Positions 5,902 to 57,551 of a DNA stretch of 64,000 nt are shown piece after piece; the first letter of the stretch is position 1; each line of letters begins with the position of its first letter. Below the pieces are notes generated by a model. It saw only the letters and a program-made list of their open reading frames with translations. It had not been told where the DNA came from and made no database searches. The DNA is taken from NCBI GenBank assembly GCA_963813155.1, contig CAWEYG010000001.1, positions 768,001-832,000 on the forward strand, written 5' to 3'. Made by a program: the position numbers and the translations under genes. Origin of the DNA: an uncultured Acidobacteriota bacterium. Its GTDB lineage: Bacteria > Acidobacteriota > Thermoanaerobaculia > UBA5066 > DATFVB01.

Positions 5902-5994
5902 TGGCGGAGAGGACGAGATTCGAACTCGTGGTAGAGCTATTCACCCTACGGCGGTTTAGCAAACCGCTGGTTTCAGCCACTCACCCACCTCTCC
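5902..5994 (-). tRNA. tRNA-Ser(GCT), copy 2
   Basis: Full cloverleaf on minus strand, same anticodon, different variable loop and T-stem pair, encoded CCA. Confidence 0.97.
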
Positions 5995-49754: not shown

Positions 49755-51388
49755 TCGCGCTTCTTCTCTTCCCCGCCCTGTTGGCCGCCCCGGCGGCTCC
49801 GGCCCAAAAGGCGGCCTGTCCCGTCGTCTTCACCGACGTCGCGCCCTCGGCCGGAATCCGTTTCGTTCACGAGCGCGGCGCGACGGAACAGCGCCGCCTG
49901 CCCGAAACGATGGGCTCGGGCGTCGCGTGGATCGACTACGACAACGACGGGTGGATGGACCTCTTCGTGGCCCAGTCGGGCCGGCTTCCCGAGGGTGATA
50001 CGGGCCGCCTGTACCGCAACAACGGCAACGGGACCTTCACCGACGTCACCGAGAAGGCGGGGATCTCGACGAAGGTGTACGGCATGGGCGCGATCGCCGC
50101 CGATTACGACAACGACGGGTTCACGGACCTTCTCGTCACCGGGTTCGGCCGCAACGTCCTGTACCACAACAACGGCAACGGCACGTTCACCGACGTCACC
50201 GACCGCGCGGGAATTCGCAGCTCGGGCTGGAACACGAGCGCCGCGTGGGCCGACGTGGACGGCGACGGCCGTCTCGACCTGTTCGTCACCCGTTACGTCG
50301 ACTTCCGCCTCGATCACGACTACTTCTGCGGCAACGCGATCACGGGAAAGCGCGAGTACTGCCACCCGGACGTGTTTCCCGGGATGAGCGGAACCCTCTT
50401 CCACAACAACGGCGACGGGACGTTCAAAGACGTGACGAAAGAGGCCGGAGTGGGCGCGATCGGAAAAGGCCTCGGCGTTCTCTTCTTCGATTCCGACGGC
50501 GACGGAAAGCCCGACCTCTACGTCGCGAACGACCAAATGCTGAACTCTCTCTTCCACAACTCCGGCGGAGGAAAATTCGAGGACATCTCGATCCCGTCGG
50601 GCGCGGCCGTCAGCTCGGAGGGCAAGCCGCAGGCGGGCATGGGCGTGGATGCGGCCGACGTGGACGGCGACGGAAGGCCGGACATCGTCGTGACGAACTT
50701 CGACTTCGAGATCAACTCCCTGTACCGCAACCTCGGAGACAACCTCTACGAGGACGCCTCCGTGTCCTCCGGCTTCGGCCCCCCCTCGTTCAATTTTCTC
50801 GCGTTCGGCGTGAACCTGTTCGACGCCGCGAACCTCGGACGGTTCGACGCGTTCGTCGCGAACGGCCACCTCTCCGAGTTCATCACGCGACAGGGCGTCA
50901 CGTACGCGGAGAGGCCGTTCCTGATGTGGAACGACGGGACCGGGCACTTCCACGAACAGGGCTGCGGCGAGCCGTTTTCGCGCCCACTCGTCGGCCGCGG
51001 ATCGGCCGTCGGGGATTTTGACAACGACGGGTTTCTCGACATTGCCGTGTCGAACTCCGGCGGCCCGTTCGAGCTGCTGCACAACGGCGGAAACGGAAAC
51101 GGGTGGGTCGGAGTGAAGCTCGAGGGGACGCGATCGAACCGGGAAGGCATCGGGACAAAGTTGACTCTCGAAACCGACAAGGGAAAGCAGGTGAAAGAAG
51201 TCATGGCCGGTTCGAGCTACCTCTCCTCGAGCGACCCGCGCGTCGTCTTCGGCCTGGGACCGGATGCGAAGTTCAAGAAGCTCGAGATCCGGTGGCCGTC
51301 CGGCACGGTCCAGACCGTCGAGAGCCTTCCGCTGCGCAAGTACACCGTGGTTCGCGAGCCCGCCGCCGCCCCTGCTCCGAAAAAGTAG
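49751..51388 (+). CDS. CRTAC1 / FG-GAP + ASPIC-UnbV protein
   Basis: Close paralog of 39955-41604. Confidence 0.92.
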   Translation: MIALLLFPALLAAPAAPAQKAACPVVFTDVAPSAGIRFVHERGATEQRRLPETMGSGVAWIDYDNDGWMDLFVAQSGRLPEGDTGRLYRNNGNGTFTDVTEKAGISTKVYGMGAIAADYDNDGFTDLLVTGFGRNVLYHNNGNGTFTDVTDRAGIRSSGWNTSAAWADVDGDGRLDLFVTRYVDFRLDHDYFCGNAITGKREYCHPDVFPGMSGTLFHNNGDGTFKDVTKEAGVGAIGKGLGVLFFDSDGDGKPDLYVANDQMLNSLFHNSGGGKFEDISIPSGAAVSSEGKPQAGMGVDAADVDGDGRPDIVVTNFDFEINSLYRNLGDNLYEDASVSSGFGPPSFNFLAFGVNLFDAANLGRFDAFVANGHLSEFITRQGVTYAERPFLMWNDGTGHFHEQGCGEPFSRPLVGRGSAVGDFDNDGFLDIAVSNSGGPFELLHNGGNGNGWVGVKLEGTRSNREGIGTKLTLETDKGKQVKEVMAGSSYLSSSDPRVVFGLGPDAKFKKLEIRWPSGTVQTVESLPLRKYTVVREPAAAPAPKK

Positions 51389-51395
51389 CCGCTCT

Positions 51396-52073
51396 TTACC
51401 CGAGCCCTTCCTCGCGCTCGAAGCTCGAAATGCCGCCGAGAAAGGCTACCGCCCGGCCGAGGCTGCGCCCGGCGATGTCGTCCATCAGCCGTCGAACGAG
51501 CGGCGAGCGCTCCATTCGCTGCGCGAACCGCCGCGACAGCCCGTACAACGCGGCGCTGATCGCCGCGCCCGCCATCAGGTTGACCGCCAGCCAGCCGCCG
51601 GGAAAAAGCGCGTAGCCGTCCACTCCGAGGACGCCCTTCAACGCGACGATCGTCAGGGGAACCCACAGGACGGGCCCGAGCAGAAGCGCCCACTTCGTCG
51701 TCGCGAGCCGGAGCACTCTCACCCTCTCGAGCTTTTTCTGGATCGCGACCACGGGCTGGCCGAAATCGATGTCGTGGAGCGTTCCCAGCTGATATCCGCA
51801 CGACACGACGGAAAGGACTGCGAACACGTCCAGCACGATCGCCGGAACGAGATAACGGGGCTCGGAGGAGTGATTCGAGAGGAAGATCCCGAGCAGGACG
51901 ATCGCGGGAATGCTCGCGAGCTGCTCGAACAGGATGCCGCGGAAAGCCCATTTCAAGCTGGAACCGGCCTTCCTCGTCCGGGAATCGCGAAGAAATTCCG
52001 CATTCAGCCGGATGACTTGATCGAGTTTTCGGTCCTGATTCGCCCAGAGGTTTTTCAATTCGTCGAGCTCCAT
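51396..52073 (-). CDS. Membrane protein, probable anti-sigma factor
   Basis: MELDELKNLW start, about 4 TM segments, directly downstream of ECF sigma. Confidence 0.75.
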   Translation of the reverse strand: MELDELKNLWANQDRKLDQVIRLNAEFLRDSRTRKAGSSLKWAFRGILFEQLASIPAIVLLGIFLSNHSSEPRYLVPAIVLDVFAVLSVVSCGYQLGTLHDIDFGQPVVAIQKKLERVRVLRLATTKWALLLGPVLWVPLTIVALKGVLGVDGYALFPGGWLAVNLMAGAAISAALYGLSRRFAQRMERSPLVRRLMDDIAGRSLGRAVAFLGGISSFEREEGLG

Positions 52074-52104
52074 GGTCTCTTCTCCTTTTCTCAATCGCGC
52101 TTTT

Positions 52105-52632
52105 TCAATCGCGCTTTCGGCGATCGAAATGTTTCCGCAACCGCTGCTTGATCCGGCCGATTCTCGTTCCAACGTTCGTCGCGGAGATCCCGAGGATCTC
52201 GGCGATCGTCTCGTGGCTGTTGCCGTCCAGATACAGGATGACGAGCGCCCGGCTCAGCTCGTCGAGCTCGTCCTGGATGAAAAGATCGAGCCTTCGCGCC
52301 GCGTCGGAAGTCTCGGCCGGAGGCCCGTCGGTCGCGGCGATCTCGAAAGTCAATTCGTCGACCGGTTCCGTTCCGCGCAAGCGGCGGCCTTCGCTCCGCG
52401 AAAACGAGATCGCGACATTCATCGCGATCCGGTACATCCACGTCGAGAAGCGACAGCGGCCGTCGAACCGCCCGAAGGAGCGCCAGAGCTGGAGGACGAT
52501 TTCCTGGGCCAGATCGGCGCGATCGGCAGGATTCCGGGTGTACGAGCCCGCGACCTTGAACAGGATCCTCCGGTGCTCCTCGAGGAGAGCGAGAAACCGA
52601 TCCTGGTCGGCAATCGCGGCCATTTCAGTCAT
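52105..52632 (-). CDS. ECF RNA polymerase sigma-70 factor
   Basis: DLAQE..LW, FSTWMYRIAMN, region 4 IAEILGIS. Confidence 0.93.
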   Translation of the reverse strand: MTEMAAIADQDRFLALLEEHRRILFKVAGSYTRNPADRADLAQEIVLQLWRSFGRFDGRCRFSTWMYRIAMNVAISFSRSEGRRLRGTEPVDELTFEIAATDGPPAETSDAARRLDLFIQDELDELSRALVILYLDGNSHETIAEILGISATNVGTRIGRIKQRLRKHFDRRKRD

Positions 52633-52787
52633 CGATACGTTATTCGCGCAAGGGCGGGAAAAATCACAAAGAATCTTCGCCGGGCGGAAGCGAAACGCCG
52701 GAGGGGCTGGGGAGGCCCTCTCCCCTGGTCGCGCCATGCTTGACCGGCGCGCGGGCATCCTGAATAATCAGCGCTCTTTGCCCGCGT

Positions 52788-52861
52788 TGGGAGGTCGTCC
52801 AACGGTAGGACACGTGGCTCTGGACCACGTTATCGGGGTTCGAATCCCTGCCTCCCAGCCA
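52788..52861 (+). tRNA. tRNA-Gln(CTG)
   Basis: TGGGAGG/CCTCCCA acceptor, CGTGG-CTCTGGA-CCACG anticodon arm, TTCGAAT, CCA. Confidence 0.97.
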
Positions 52862-52926
52862 ATTTTCGCAAGCCCTTCAAGCTCGTCCTGCGGCGCTTCG
52901 CGCGTCGCCGCGGAGCGGCACACCCT

Positions 52927-53937
52927 TCAAGGCAGGGTCCGGGTCACGCCGAGCGAGAGCGTGAGCCCCTGGTGAAAGGTCTGGCCCGAGCTTCCGTGGG
53001 CGAAGATCTCCCGGTAGAGCCCGGCCGAGATCGTCGTTTTCGGCGACGCCCGGAACGTGCCGCGCAGCACCGTGCCGCCGCTCGTGAACCCCGTTCCTTC
53101 GTCCTCGAGCCCATGCCATTTTCCGACGCTCTGGTACTGACCGGAGAATTGGAGCGAGACCGAGAATGCGCCCATCGGCATTGCCGGACCTACGCCCCAT
53201 TGAATGTTGACCGGCGGCTTATAACCGCCGCTGCTCTCGTACACCGGCAGCCGCGCATCGACCGCCTCTCCGAGCAGGACGTTTCCCACGCGCTCGAAGG
53301 CGCTCACGACGAGTCTCGGGTCAAACGTTCCGCTGCCGAACTGCAAGTGCTCGTGCTTTTTCCCTTCGAGACCGAGTCGCACGGGATCGGGCACGGTCTT
53401 TCCGATCGGAAGCGTCGTCCCGGCCGCGAGCGTGACTCCCCACGAAGTCCCGGAGAGAAACGCGGGCGCCTTCCAGTACAGCAGCTCGCCGTCGCTCACG
53501 CCCCAGAGAGTCTCGGTGCGGTGATGGATGTCGCCATAGGGGGGAACGTACGGCTGCCCGTCGAGCGTCTCGTAGTGAACGTGCTGGTCCTTGACGTCGT
53601 AAGGGATGCGCAGGGAGAGTTGAGAATTCGCGCCGAGCCCGTACGCCGCGAAAAGATCCGCGTGGTAGAGATCCAGCGCGATGACGTGGCGGTGCGGCGG
53701 GATCGTCATCGTTGCGCACTCGACGGGAGCGACATCGGGACACGTCGCGACGTGACTCGTATCGAATCGCCCCTCGGCGAGACTAAGCGTAACCGTCCAC
53801 CCGCCGGGTGGCGTGATCTGCTGGCCGACCTCTCGCCCGGAGAGGTTAGGGTTCGCTCAGGCCGGTCAACCGCCGGCCGCAGGAACTGCCTGAATCAGCG
53901 TGAGCATCAAAGCGGCGAGGAATCCGCGCCGGATCAT
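52927..53937 (-). CDS. Putative double-selenocysteine (UxxU) outer-membrane beta-barrel-like protein, 336 aa with readthrough
   Basis: ATG 53937, signal peptide, GG-TGA-CCG-GCC-TGA, then open in the same frame into ORF 53709..52927; SECIS-like hairpin follows. Confidence 0.75.
53828..53846 (-). promoter_or_regulatory. Candidate bacterial SECIS hairpin
   Basis: ACCUCUC-CGGGC-GAGAGGU; stem begins after a 10-nt spacer from the second UGA; G-rich apical loop. Confidence 0.65.
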
Positions 53938-54599
53938 CGGGACGCCGCCTTCGCCTTTTCGATCAAGGCAAGGATCTCGTCCCACATGCCGCCGCTGCCG
54001 GCGAGTTTTCCCGCGCCGCCGTAGACACGAACGTACGGGAGGCTCGCAGCTCCCTGCCGCGTGATTTGACGGGCGGCCGCGTTGTCCCACTTCCCGATGT
54101 CCACGCGACGCAGCGCGATTTCGGGATGCAGCACCATGTAGTGCTCCAGCCGGAGCTCCAGCGTTTTGCAGGGGCCGCACCAGTCGGCGTAGTAGTCGAC
54201 GAGCGTTGTCTTGCCGGCGGCCGAAAGCCCCTTTTCGTCGACCGGGCTTTTCCCGTCGAATCGGCGGAGATCGAGCTTCGCGAGCTCCTCCGGCGGAAGC
54301 GGCTCGAATCCTCGGGCGGCCTCGCCGGGAAAGACCGCGACGAACCCGAGGTTGTCGAGCGCTGCCTTGAGCCTGTCCTTGTCGAACCCGGGCGGGACGT
54401 CGACCTCGGCGGCTTCCTTTTTCCAGTCCACGCGGGCTTTCTCGACCCCGGGCGTCGATGTCAGCGCTTTCTGTATCGGAGCCGCGCAGAGCTCGCATTC
54501 GATCCCGATGACGTGAAATCGGAATGTCTCCGCTCCCGACGGCGATGCCGAGAGAACGGTGAACAAAGAGACGATGAGGGATAAACGAGTTGCCTTCAT
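53934..54599 (-). CDS. Exported HMA (heavy-metal-associated) + thioredoxin fusion protein
   Basis: Signal peptide; GIECELC HMA motif; YADWCGPCK thioredoxin motif. Confidence 0.9.
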   Translation of the reverse strand: MKATRLSLIVSLFTVLSASPSGAETFRFHVIGIECELCAAPIQKALTSTPGVEKARVDWKKEAAEVDVPPGFDKDRLKAALDNLGFVAVFPGEAARGFEPLPPEELAKLDLRRFDGKSPVDEKGLSAAGKTTLVDYYADWCGPCKTLELRLEHYMVLHPEIALRRVDIGKWDNAAARQITRQGAASLPYVRVYGGAGKLAGSGGMWDEILALIEKAKAASR

Positions 54600-54662
54600 G
54601 GAAAACCTCCTTCCGAAAGTACGAGAGGAAGAACTGCGCGGACAGGCGCCCGCGCGGCGCGC

Positions 54663-55019
54663 TCAGACGCGCAGCGTGGAAAGGAGGATCGAAAGGCTCC
54701 GCGTGGCTTCGGGAGGACCGTGGAGGGAGGCGACGTCGGTGACAAAGCGACTCGCCGGGAGAGACGTCGAAGGCCAGGAGAACGTCGGAACCGGTCCGAC
54801 CAACAGCGAAGGCGGCGTTACTCCCGCCGATCTCGAGGAGAGGACGATCGGGGCCGCACCCTTCTTTTCGCCCCGGCAGCAGTCCGGCATCGGACAGCAA
54901 TCCGGCGACGAGGCAGCTGTTTCAAGGCTTGCGAGCGAGCAGCAGGGATGGCGCAGAGGCATCCCGAGTCCGGAAAGCAACCCGAACGAAACGAGGAGGA
55001 CCACGACGCGCTTCCCCAC
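54663..55019 (-). CDS. Small Cys-rich exported/membrane protein
   Basis: Hydrophobic N-terminus, HPCC, DCCPMPDCC, HGPP..LLSTLRV tail. Confidence 0.65.
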   Translation of the reverse strand: MGKRVVVLLVSFGLLSGLGMPLRHPCCSLASLETAASSPDCCPMPDCCRGEKKGAAPIVLSSRSAGVTPPSLLVGPVPTFSWPSTSLPASRFVTDVASLHGPPEATRSLSILLSTLRV

Positions 55020-55043
55020 GCTCTCGATGGTACACCTCCTGGC

Positions 55044-56232
55044 CTACCGCTCCACTTCGAGCGCGAGCGCCGTCCAGTCGTCGCCCAGATCCGAACTCGT
55101 CGCGTTCCGGACGGCCGCGAACAGCGAGTCGAGAAGCTCGCCGGTGGAAGCCGCCGCGCGCGGAATGAGGGATTGCAGCGCCTCGTAGCCGAGCGGATCT
55201 CCCGCCGCCGTCGAGGCCTCCGGCAGGCCGTCCGTGAACATCAGGAGACGCTCGCCCGCGCCCAAAGTCGATCGACAGCGATTCGTACGCGACCTCGCCG
55301 CGGGCGCCGAGCGGCAGCCGGGGCCCGGGACCGAGGGCCTCCGCGTCCTGCCCGCGGACGAGACGGTACGGGTCGGGTATGCCGGCATTGGAGAGCTCGA
55401 GAGTCCGAGACGCCGGGTCGTACCGCGCGTACGCGAGCGCGACGAATTCGCGCGCGCCGAGCTCCGCGTGGAGCTTGCGGTTCAGTTGCGCGAGGGTTTC
55501 CGCCGTCCCGCGCCCTTCGGCGATCAGCGGCAGGACCGCCTTCACGGAGGCCATGATCAGGCTCGCGCCCATTCCCTTCCCCGAGACGTCCGCCACGACG
55601 ATCCCGAGCGCGCCGTCGGAGAGGCGGAAGACGTCGTAGAAATCGCCCGCGACGAAACGCGCCGCGAGATTGCGCGCCGAGATCCGGTAGCCGTCGCCCG
55701 AGAGCTCCGGCGGCGGCAGCAGCCGGCTCTGGATCTCGCGAGCGACGGCCAGCTCTTTTTCCGCGAACTCCTGCTCCTTGATGCGGATGATCGATTCGCG
55801 CAGCCGCGTGCGCATCACGCCGAACGTGTAGAACAGCAGGCCTCCCGCGACCGCGACCCCGCCGCTGATGAAAAGCGAGACACGCAGGTCGCTCCCGTCC
55901 ATCTGGAACGGCATCAGCCCGAGCACCCGGAGGAGCAGCGTCGCCGCGAGGATGCCCAGGATGCCGCCGGCGAAGTAGATCGGCACGCCAACGAGCCTGT
56001 CCGGAAAGATCTTGCGCCGGCGGATCGGGTCGCCGACGGCATTGTCGAGCCCGTAGCAGAACACGTAGATCACGGCGCCCACGACCGCGCCGTACAACAC
56101 GAGGCGTCCGCCCCAGAAATCCCGCCGGTTGATCGTCGTCAGGAAGACGACCCCGACGCCGGCGAACGCCGAAACCGCGATCGAGCGCAGGGTCGCGGCG
56201 AAATGGTCGCGTCGGTCGGCCGGGGTGTTCAC
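55044..56232 (-). CDS. Membrane-bound PP2C/SpoIIE (RsbU-like) phosphatase, frameshift near 55265
   Basis: N-terminal TMs; AREIQ, AGDFYD, ADVSGKG, NAG; FTDG and DD.T in second frame. Confidence 0.88.
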
Positions 56233-56315
56233 GATGACCTATCGTACGTGTTGCAGGGGCGGGAGTTTCGAGCCGGGGTAACGTCCGCGGCGGCTCGCAC
56301 GGCTAAACGGATGGC

Positions 56316-56425
56316 GCGGGTCCTGTCACGGGATTCGACCCGGCTTTTCCGCTCGCCGCGAGCCTGAGGACTTTGCTATACCCGCGTCGCGAGCGGCAAA
56401 AGGGGTCTCGCCCCGGGCCACCCGC
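56316..56425 (+). repeat. Interspersed palindromic element, copy 2
   Basis: Matches 1368-1470 and the reverse complement of 60137-60245. Confidence 0.85.
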
Positions 56426-56660
56426 GCCGGCGCCAATCCCTGAGCGAGATTCGCGAGGGTCGGGGCTTAATGGGGTCGCGAGCAACCCTTCGAGGCGCGG
56501 GCGTCGTTGTCTGAGCGACCGGATATGGCCGAGCCGCAGTCGGGAACCGCGGATGGCGAGGCCATCAAAATGCTGCGAGTTTCGCGCCCGCAACGAGAAG
56601 GCGTTGCGAGCGAACCCGAGGGGCTAAAACCCGAGCGGAGACAGAGCGAATCCCTCCGCA

Positions 56661-57551
56661 TTAATTCCTCAGAAGGCGGCCGATTCGGAATTCGGATGAC
56701 AAAAATGCCGCCGCCTGCCGGGTGAAGGACTCCGGATACTGGAAGAGCGAGCCGTGCCCGGCATCCGGGTAGATCAGCAGGACAGCGTTGGCCAGTTGCT
56801 CGACCAATCGATAGGAGTTCGTCACCGGAATCATCTCGTCGAGCACACCGTTCACGACGAGGGTGGGCTGGCGAATGGCCCGGAGCTCTGCGAATCGCTC
56901 GCCGCTGAAGCGTTCCCATTCTCGGAAGGCCGCGATCTGAGCGCTCGCCACATTCGGTCCCGACGGCGGATCAAGGTCCGCCCTCCGCGCCGCGAGGCGC
57001 GGAACGAAGGCCTCGGCGGCGGCCTGGCTCATCGGCGACGACGTGAAAAAGATCTTCTTCAAGACGTCATAGCCGCGATTGGTCGGATCCTGAAGGTGCC
57101 TGGCCAGGCTCGGTTTCTCGAGGTGCATGATGTCCTCGCCGCCACGAGGGGCGGTCCCGACGAGAATCATCCGCCGAAAAATCGACGGGCGATCCTGGAC
57201 CATCTGCAACGCGACCATCCCGCCGAGGGAGTACCCGACGACGTCGCACGTCGCGATCCCAAGGCCGTCGAGAAAGGCCATCGCGTGCCGGGCCATGGCA
57301 GCGATCGTGTCGGGCACCTCGCCGGTGGAACGCCCGACGCCCGCGTTGTCGAAGAGGATGACCTCGCGGCCCGCCGCGAGAGGATCTGTGACGGCGGGGT
57401 CCCAGTTGTCGAGCGTCCCGGTGAAATGCTGCAGGAAGAGGAGCGGCAGCCCGGGACCGCCGCCAAACCGTCTGTACGCATACGACAGGCCGTTGGTCTG
57501 AACGAATTGCGTGGGAGCGGTCGTGTTGCCCGGGGTCTTGCCTGGCGCCAT
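56661..57551 (-). CDS. Alpha/beta hydrolase
   Basis: QHF, DNAGVGRS, GYSLGG, D..IP, DAGH. Confidence 0.92.
   Translation of the reverse strand: MAPGKTPGNTTAPTQFVQTNGLSYAYRRFGGGPGLPLLFLQHFTGTLDNWDPAVTDPLAAGREVILFDNAGVGRSTGEVPDTIAAMARHAMAFLDGLGIATCDVVGYSLGGMVALQMVQDRPSIFRRMILVGTAPRGGEDIMHLEKPSLARHLQDPTNRGYDVLKKIFFTSSPMSQAAAEAFVPRLAARRADLDPPSGPNVASAQIAAFREWERFSGERFAELRAIRQPTLVVNGVLDEMIPVTNSYRLVEQLANAVLLIYPDAGHGSLFQYPESFTRQAAAFLSSEFRIGRLLRN

Follow-up and report, generated by a model that had tools for sequence, protein, structure and literature searches.

A predicted double-selenocysteine outer-membrane barrel protein encoded beside an HMA-thioredoxin gene in an uncultured Acidobacteriota bacterium

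Table 1 of a 2026 review holds 119 prokaryotic selenoprotein families, where the entries with two selenocysteine (Sec, U) residues spaced as UxxU are a Prx-like protein, the HMA protein NF041115 and FmdB, and the outer-membrane entries are the GSU2204/MtrB-PioB barrel and a TonB-dependent receptor (PMC13188914). Sec in CxxC-type metal sites of metal-transport proteins is represented there by the NF041115 UxxU HMA protein, a MerT-like protein, a P-type ATPase and the SO_0444 transporter (PMC13188914). Here a further gene is described from a window of 64,000 nucleotides (nt), the whole stretch of DNA that was analysed, from an uncultured Acidobacteriota bacterium (assembly GCA_963813155.1, contig CAWEYG010000001.1, positions 768,001 to 832,000). 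Located on the minus strand at 52927-53937 and containing two in-frame TGA codons, the gene probably encodes a 336-residue double-Sec outer-membrane barrel protein that may handle a thiophilic metal together with a partner carrying HMA and thioredoxin (Trx) domains. Within this explanation, sequence comparison makes the selenoprotein reading very likely, while the evidence leaves the metal-handling function about evenly balanced.

The arrangement of the two Sec residues resembles that of NF041115, whose pair has CxxC spacing within a soft-metal context and whose UGAs, 9 nt apart, must share one selenocysteine insertion sequence (SECIS); it is listed with 2 Sec in the same table (PMC13188914). 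That protein is however a small soluble HMA fold, whereas the UxxU described here would belong to the tail of a barrel in the outer membrane; the neighbouring protein, whose HMA domain has CxxC and not UxxU, reaches 31.6 bits against the NF041115 model, for which the cut-off is 95. The GSU2204/MtrB-PioB barrel (NF041027) and the FCYXU-type TonB-dependent receptor (NF049945) are likewise predicted outer-membrane barrel selenoproteins, but each has a single Sec and belongs to another barrel family, and neither gives an NCBIfam match to the window protein. In fold the two nearest relatives are both 12-strand outer-membrane barrels from Pseudomonas. One is the COG4313/PF13557 channel Pput2725 of Pseudomonas putida (4rl8; Foldseek E 1e-9, template modelling (TM) score by target 0.69-0.71), from which the window protein differs by an identity of only 12%, the lack of a Pfam match, and a U/CxxC-x-NP-x-L tail, seven invariant His and an HMA-Trx neighbour that are outside the description of that family. 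The other, the amyloid-secretion channel FapF (5o65, 5o67), is the best fold match (5o67_B, E 2e-10, TM 0.56-0.70) and also has an N-terminal periplasmic extension, but identity is 15-17%, the fap operon context is missing here and FapF is without a Sec/Cys pair. Selenoprotein L of aquatic eukaryotes, in which UxxU forms a diselenide, has a thioredoxin fold and a SECIS in the 3′ untranslated region, and is unrelated to the window protein in sequence and location. A PF13557-like barrel with an N-terminal UxxU had no match in the tabulated inventory of 119 families (PMC13188914), and other family lists may already hold it; literature searches on UxxU/UPAU, Acidobacteriota and outer-membrane selenoproteins returned nothing on the family, of which a prior description may nevertheless exist. 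The gene would represent a new family within a known kind: the recoding is standard, and both two Sec under one SECIS and outer-membrane selenoproteins have precedents.

The features of the gene and its partner are as follows:
52927-53937, minus strand: full selenoprotein gene as proposed, 336 codons and a TGA stop, with signal peptide, UPAU tail and 12-strand barrel
53869-53937, minus strand: predicted signal peptide, residues 1-23, MIRRGFLAALMLTLIQAVPAAGG, from the translation with TGA as U
53866-53868, minus strand: UGA1, proposed Sec24 and first residue of the mature protein; TGA in 56 of 57 motif loci, Cys in homologues
53857-53859, minus strand: UGA2, proposed Sec27; TGA in 57 of 57 aligned sequences, equivalent to the second Cys of CxxC homologues
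53847-53856, minus strand: 10-nt spacer from UGA2 to the hairpin
53828-53846, minus strand: SECIS-like hairpin ACCUCUC-CGGGC-GAGAGGU (5′ arm 53846-53840, loop 53839-53835, 3′ arm 53834-53828)
53707-53709, minus strand: ATG giving the table-11 gene call in the open reading frame (ORF) listing, a 260-residue product without signal peptide; conserved residues (GGW..., TSHVATCPDVAPVEC) lie upstream of it
53934-54599, minus strand: partner gene, a predicted exported fusion of HMA (GIECELC) and thioredoxin-like (WCGPC) domains, 221 residues; Pfam HMA 33 bits, Thioredoxin 34.9 bits

The start ATG (53937-53935) and the TGA that ends the upstream gene (53936-53934) share bases as ATGA. From there the frame runs through MIRRGFLAALMLTLIQAVPAAGG, TGA, Pro, Ala and TGA (TGA-CCG-GCC-TGA) into ANPNLSGREVGQQITPPGGWTVTLSLAEGRFDTSHVATCPDVAPVECATM... 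and stays open until the TGA stop at 52929-52927, the first in-frame ATG, GTG or TTG after the second TGA being the ATG at 53709 in the ORF listing. The initial annotation, made from the sequence of the window, had given this layout of an ATGA-coupled start and a TGA-P-A-TGA after the signal peptide continuing into the 260-residue ORF, and on re-reading all its coordinates and motifs were correct; so were the hairpin after a 10-nt spacer with its loop 17 and 26 nt from the two UGAs, confirmed in the sequence, and the His clusters HRH, HH and HEH, which are present in the translation as HRH, HH within PPYGDIHHR, and HEHLQFGSGTFD.

Conservation of the two TGA codons was investigated with the read-through protein as query. 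Among 61 genomes of the same order it was matched in five, the host included, each match with 2 TGA inside; two unpublished genomes (G002 and G008) are counted in this search and in the selA search below, both with a selA match and no barrel match. A scan of one genome per species gave 60 loci, of which 59 were examined and one C-terminal fragment (L086) was left out. In 57 of the 59 a signal peptide with a small-x-small end, mostly A-Y/F-A, is followed by U/C-x-x-U-[ASG]-N-P-[NQ]-L, the signal peptides having the form MK/R-hydrophobic-A(Y/F)A right before the first U. Of these 57 motif loci, 56 have UxxU and one has CxxU (L080, TGT-CCT-GGC-TGA). In their DNA alignment T10, G11 and A12 are invariant, as are T1 and G2, and the third bases of the two intervening codons vary. 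Most loci come from metagenome-assembled genomes (MAGs) of Thermoanaerobaculia/Acidobacteriota, and nine (L076-L084) from MAGs labelled Proteobacteria, Rickettsiales, Enterobacterales or Sericytochromatia, seven of the nine being in the protein alignment at 28-34% identity to the window protein. Contigs from three soil runs of three studies span 53857-53868 with zero listed differences over 53803-53878; the evidence is at the level of contigs rather than raw reads, and the source sample may itself be among the runs.

A pseudogene or an assembly error would account for the two stop codons, whose presence is all that speaks for it; the same two TGAs, with the frame kept, occur in 56 independent assemblies and also in the contigs of the three runs, which leaves this explanation next to no likelihood. 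Several loci are irregular in their own right. Two (L075, 3686-4627; L085, 3398-4607) have the whole N-terminal region with signal peptide and UxxU absent, and in L085 an HMA-like N-terminus (GIDCAACAPPIL...) joins straight to PPYGDIHHR, suggesting a deletion, a fusion or mis-assembly. L073 (3953-4285) is apparently frameshifted after about residue 75 and its ORF ends at 110 residues, and L063 and L070 have divergent C-terminal ends; assembly indels may explain all three.

In 34 of 34 aligned proteins U24, U27, N29, P30, L32, H62, A64, H82, H84, PPYGDIHHR (132-140), H195, H197 and W274 are invariant, and C66 and C74 are nearly so. The initial annotation had proposed conservation of residues 24-76 as a check on its reading, and it is in this interval that the invariant U24 to A64 and the nearly invariant C66 and C74 are found. 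In three proteins (L064, L065 and L066, alignment columns ~93-108) the loop segment CPDVAPVEC, from C66 to C74, is missing.

Homologues with Cys at the positions of the UGAs were found in a profile search over 1.84 billion representatives, which gave 824 clusters (50% identity) at E<=0.001. Among the best 150 clusters, 17 are full-length proteins with a signal peptide and then CxxC-x-NP-x-L at the UGA positions, for example ...AEA-CAGCSNPNLP, ...AHA-CPGCSNPNLP and ...GQA-CPACSNPAL, and P0257 has the variant CVSCSPQL. The pairing of Sec with Cys in homologues is named as the classical selenoprotein criterion in passages of two publications (PMC12013277, PMC13188914), and the alignment of the UGA positions with Cys places the window protein within it. 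Two further checks named in the initial annotation thus came out in its favour: the homologous residues are Cys and not Trp, in the 17 CxxC clusters and in the one CxxU locus, and where sequencing might have revealed TGC or TGG at these sites, the other assemblies and the soil contigs have TGA.

If the TGAs were ordinary stops, a 23-codon leader peptide would be followed by a barrel translated separately from the ATG at 53709 or from a non-canonical start. The table-11 gene call yields exactly such a product, and the database homologues have been called likewise: a word-indexed protein search gave 313, the best 120 of which span 222-296 residues at a query coverage of at most 88%, none being longer than 296. 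The outer-membrane barrel so produced would however be without a signal peptide, and the residues between UGA2 and the ATG at 53709 are conserved, the invariant H62 and A64 among them. Signal peptide, both TGAs and barrel are in one frame in 57 loci, and the Cys forms are single full-length proteins. The N-termini of the database proteins are also ragged, the 24 inspected beginning at the first ATG, GTG or TTG without a signal peptide, which is the effect that in-frame TGAs would have on gene calls. Ordinary termination is on these grounds very improbable, and the truncation by gene callers that the initial annotation anticipated is visible in both sets, the 120 best homologues and the 24 inspected.

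The host genome has the machinery that decoding of UGA as Sec would draw upon. All of selA (456.5 bits), selB (351.2 bits), selC, the gene of the transfer RNA for Sec (tRNA-Sec, 71.3 bits), and selD (331.9 bits, with one in-frame TGA) score above their curated cut-offs, so that the presence of selABCD, which the initial annotation had asked for, was borne out by profile scores. Furthermore, selA was found in 60 of the 61 sampled genomes of the order and in all five of the tested distant genomes with the U-form. The host selD (C3:921620-922561) is itself a selenoprotein gene, reading AGSAG-U-ACKL, and its UGA is followed by a SECIS hairpin with an AGUUC loop that begins at 16 nt; this distance is of the same class as that of UGA2 in the barrel gene (17 nt).

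The hairpin of the window has a 7-bp stem, a CGGGC loop beginning at the 17 and 26 nt given above, and a minimum free energy (MFE) of -11.3 kcal/mol over 36 nt. When 22 nt around the site were folded in each of the 58 sequences (57 loci and the window), every one gave a hairpin of 6-8 bp at the same place, with a loop that begins 17-18 nt downstream of UGA2 and 26-27 nt downstream of UGA1. The loops contain GG or GU (GGC, GGU, CGGGC, CGGGA, GGUC), and a G is among the first two loop positions in all 58. There are 20 distinct stem-loop sequences, and stems as different as CCUCUCC/GGAGGGG, UCUCUCC/GGAGAGA, ACCUCUCC/GGAG(C)AGGU, ACCUCCA/UGGAGGU, GCUCCA/UGGAGC and UCUGUC/GGCAGA occupy the same place, the changes altering the encoded residues (NLSGGG, NLSGGE, NLQAGG, QLQVGA, NLSVGR) while the helix is kept. 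In 36-nt MFE folds the site hairpin is the first hairpin in 49 of the 58, and L078 has it as the second. The bacterial SECIS (bSECIS) model, as worded in one figure legend, has an apical loop of 3-9 nt, a stem of 4-16 bp, a G in the first two loop positions, a distance of 16-37 nt from the UGA and an MFE of at most -7.5 kcal/mol (PMC13188914, Fig. 2 legend). In an implementation of our own, the loop, stem and spacing of this model are present in 58 of 58 sequences versus a mean of 27% (median 24%) of synonymous recodings, a contrast that is not a probability because the sequences are related. The 36-nt MFE ranges from -6.8 to -16.6 kcal/mol, and it is the CxxU locus L080 (-6.8) that misses the energy bound. 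Fixed-distance conservation and two spacings that both lie within the published 16-37 nt uphold the initial proposal of one SECIS-like hairpin for both UGAs.

Several results weigh against this reading. Fold energy was considered as evidence for the hairpin and rejected, as the 91-nt region of the window is no more stable than its dinucleotide shuffles (z = -0.11) and synonymous recodings fold equally well, the median fraction at least as stable being 0.405 and only 3 of the 58 sequences lying at or below 5%. Pairs placed in a fixed register on the ungapped alignment gave 73.0% paired cells, and sliding the 3′ arm by -2 gave about as many (72.6%) with a higher covariation score, a lack of discrimination that stems from the hairpins of proteobacterial loci being offset by one or two columns from the acidobacterial ones. 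RNAalifold retained only 4 invariant pairs, without covariation, and pair counts from the per-sequence folds are paired by construction. Relative to the UGA-to-hairpin distance in the host selD, that of UGA1 is 9 nt longer. Among the sequencing runs listed as containing the stretch, none is of RNA. Finally, the window protein ends in ...TRTLP, where most homologues have a terminal Phe (...R-x-F), so that of the two signals of an outer-membrane barrel as a BAM substrate, the signal peptide appears in the read-through translation and the aromatic end of the C-terminal beta-signal is absent. When the 12 codons of the window itself are recoded synonymously at random, a SECIS-like hairpin arises in 53% of cases as well; taken alone the window would not be convincing, and the case is made by the host genome and the relatives. 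With these included, comparison of the sequences strongly supports the decoding of both UGAs as Sec under one SECIS.

Reading of the UGAs as Trp, Cys or Gly by a near-cognate tRNA, rather than as Sec, is likewise very unlikely. Such read-through would fit the position of UGA1, further from the hairpin than usual, and some Sec-independent read-through is compatible with the data. What argues for Sec is Cys at the homologous positions, the conserved SECIS-like hairpin at the right distance and selA in all the tested genomes with the U-form; nor is TGA a general sense codon here, because the gene's own terminator is also TGA.

The protein that results from reading both UGAs as Sec was modelled with AlphaFold2 using 34 read-through homologues as the alignment. 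The parts of the mature protein are:
53800-53868, minus strand: predicted flexible N-terminal tail, residues 24-46, UPAUANPNLSGREVGQQITPPGG W; low confidence in the model, conserved U/C-x-x-U/C-x-N-P-x-L
52930-53799, minus strand: predicted 12-strand beta-barrel domain, residues 47-336, from the AlphaFold2 model, DSSP and Foldseek
53518-53544, minus strand: PPYGDIHHR motif, residues 132-140, in the modelled loop between strands 3 and 4 (non-strand segment 125-141); present in 34 of 34 aligned full-length proteins
53347-53355, minus strand: HEH, residues 195-197, with H195 and H197 invariant, within the long loop 177-206 of the model

The model has a mean predicted local distance difference test (pLDDT) of 85.8 and a predicted TM score of 0.81, and DSSP assigns 12 long strands over residues 47-335. 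In Foldseek against PDB the top two proteins were FapF (5o65/5o67) and the COG4313 channel 4rl8, with E 2e-10 to 1e-9 and TM 0.56-0.71, the TM range for 4rl8 being 0.57-0.71. This confident model and its structural matches sustain the earlier suggestion of a beta-barrel. The Cys-form profile had no match among PDB sequences at E<=1, and the window protein, whose modelled 12-strand fold is like that of 4rl8, does not pass the PF13557 gathering score. PF13557 is reached by distant members of the family, by P0257 with 31.5 bits (cut-off 22) and P0192 with 18.3 bits, and in the Atlas a Cys homologue has clusters of PF13557 as its neighbours. The order of the strands in the model would place the His motifs in long loops and the tail on the periplasmic side.

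Directly upstream of the barrel gene, 57 of 58 loci encode an HMA-Trx homologue, and both Cys pairs (HMA CxxC and WCxPC) are invariant in 24 of 24 aligned partners. The overlap between barrel and partner gene is 4 nt long in 27 of 46 loci and 1 nt long in 5. In the metagenomic protein P0225 (442 residues) a Cys-form barrel carries a C-terminal HMA domain at residues 375-428 (E 5e-11), a natural fusion. Neighbour and fusion together suggest that the barrel is tied to heavy-metal-binding chemistry, and they give the metal-binding or redox-gated function put forward in the initial annotation a better grounding, although on sequence evidence any function stays conjectural. Against a metal-handling function stand the following results. 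The tail is not confidently placed, with pLDDT below 50 at residues 14-34 of the window model, and in the model of the Cys-form P0158 (17 sequences) the barrel is the same and the tail reaches 54-65. The window read-through protein has no Pfam (E<=1) or NCBIfam family match, and except for the HMA-Trx gene no conserved metal-resistance or transport genes were found nearby. Neighbours at a fixed offset in at least 6 loci were only that gene and shadow ORFs.

On the preferred explanation, translation would start at the ATG at 53937, coupled to the upstream gene as the ATGA overlap suggests, and both UGAs would be read as Sec by SelB and tRNA-Sec, guided by the one hairpin at 53846-53828, whose GG loop is spaced as usual from UGA2 (17 nt), with UGA1 another 9 nt away (26 nt). 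The protein would be exported and presumably cut by signal peptidase I after the small-x-small site, so that the mature protein begins with U-P-A-U-A-N-P-N-L. Residues 47-336 are modelled as an outer-membrane barrel with 12 strands, in the fold class of FapF and COG4313 (PF13557), and its predicted loops carry the seven invariant His H62, H82, H84, H138, H139, H195 and H197. The flexible UxxU tail of about 22 residues would be a candidate site for thiophilic metals such as Cu(I), Hg(II), Cd or Zn. It may trade the ion with its partner in the periplasm, the co-translated HMA(CxxC)-thioredoxin(WCxPC) protein, or be kept reduced by that protein, and the pair would feed metal into the barrel or take it from the barrel, with the barrel and its His-rich loops as the conduit.

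The main functional rival is a redox role for the same selenoprotein, in which UxxU is a diselenide/selenol centre reduced by the partner's Trx domain, and the tail serves as a gate or plug for the barrel or as a donor of reducing equivalents to a substrate bound at the His-rich loops. UxxU and CxxC are known as classic motifs of redox chemistry. The review regards most of the predicted prokaryotic selenoproteins as probable redox proteins (PMC13188914). The partner always has a WCxPC thioredoxin-like domain, and FapF, the closest fold relative, is titled a plugged channel in its PDB entries. The partner always has an HMA domain too, however, and one homologue fuses HMA to the barrel, which points to metals; nor is a source of periplasmic reducing power conserved beside the pair. 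A redox role is on balance rather unlikely as the principal function, and as the two readings are compatible and not mutually exclusive it may accompany the metal handling that is preferred here. A more elaborate scheme, in which the UxxU tail threads into the barrel lumen, forms a selenolate-histidine centre with the seven invariant His and relays metal or reducing equivalents across the outer membrane, recharged by HMA-Trx, is speculative and quite improbable. If true, an outer-membrane barrel would contain a selenium-based relay that works without haems and without TonB.

The gene is genuine and conserved, public data mis-annotate it, and the earlier reading of the locus is supported. With its 824 clusters, mainly from soil Thermoanaerobaculia/Acidobacteriota, and no Pfam or NCBIfam model, the family is a widespread addition to the bacterial selenoproteome. 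Gene calls of 260-296 residues without a signal peptide conceal the signal for export together with the only Sec/Cys motif, a mis-annotation that is systematic for the family in public data. Two selenocysteines at the extreme N-terminus of a mature outer-membrane protein would be an unusual placement of Sec, and two UGAs 9 nt apart under one SECIS offer a natural case in which a spacing rule is testable. The strict pairing with HMA-thioredoxin makes a two-gene module that would perform metal or redox chemistry at the outer membrane in a poorly studied phylum.

A compositional check gave no sign of a genomic island at the locus. Just upstream of the HMA-Trx gene a 118-residue ORF on the minus strand (54663-55019) has a signal-peptide-like start and CC / DCC / DCC motifs; a look-alike is present in only one other (L032) of 48 loci and the ORF has no Pfam match. 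An Rfam scan of 50000-57000 gave no SECIS family match and only one match above threshold, a tRNA-Gln. A weak match to the anti-hemB small RNA at 54598-54680 on the minus strand, just upstream of the HMA-Trx start (28 bits versus a gathering score of 49.5), is probably due to chance. The tRNA-Gln(CTG) gene lies at 52788-52861 on the plus strand, 66 nt past the stop of the selenoprotein gene and on the opposite strand to it. It separates the selenoprotein gene from a minus-strand pair at 51396-52758, an extracytoplasmic function (ECF)-type sigma factor (Sigma70_r2 and r4_2) followed by a 258-residue protein without family match that is possibly its anti-sigma factor. Elsewhere in the window two tRNA-Ser(GCT) genes of equal length, at 2447-2539 on the plus strand and 5902-5994 on the minus strand, lie in opposite orientation 3.4 kb apart.

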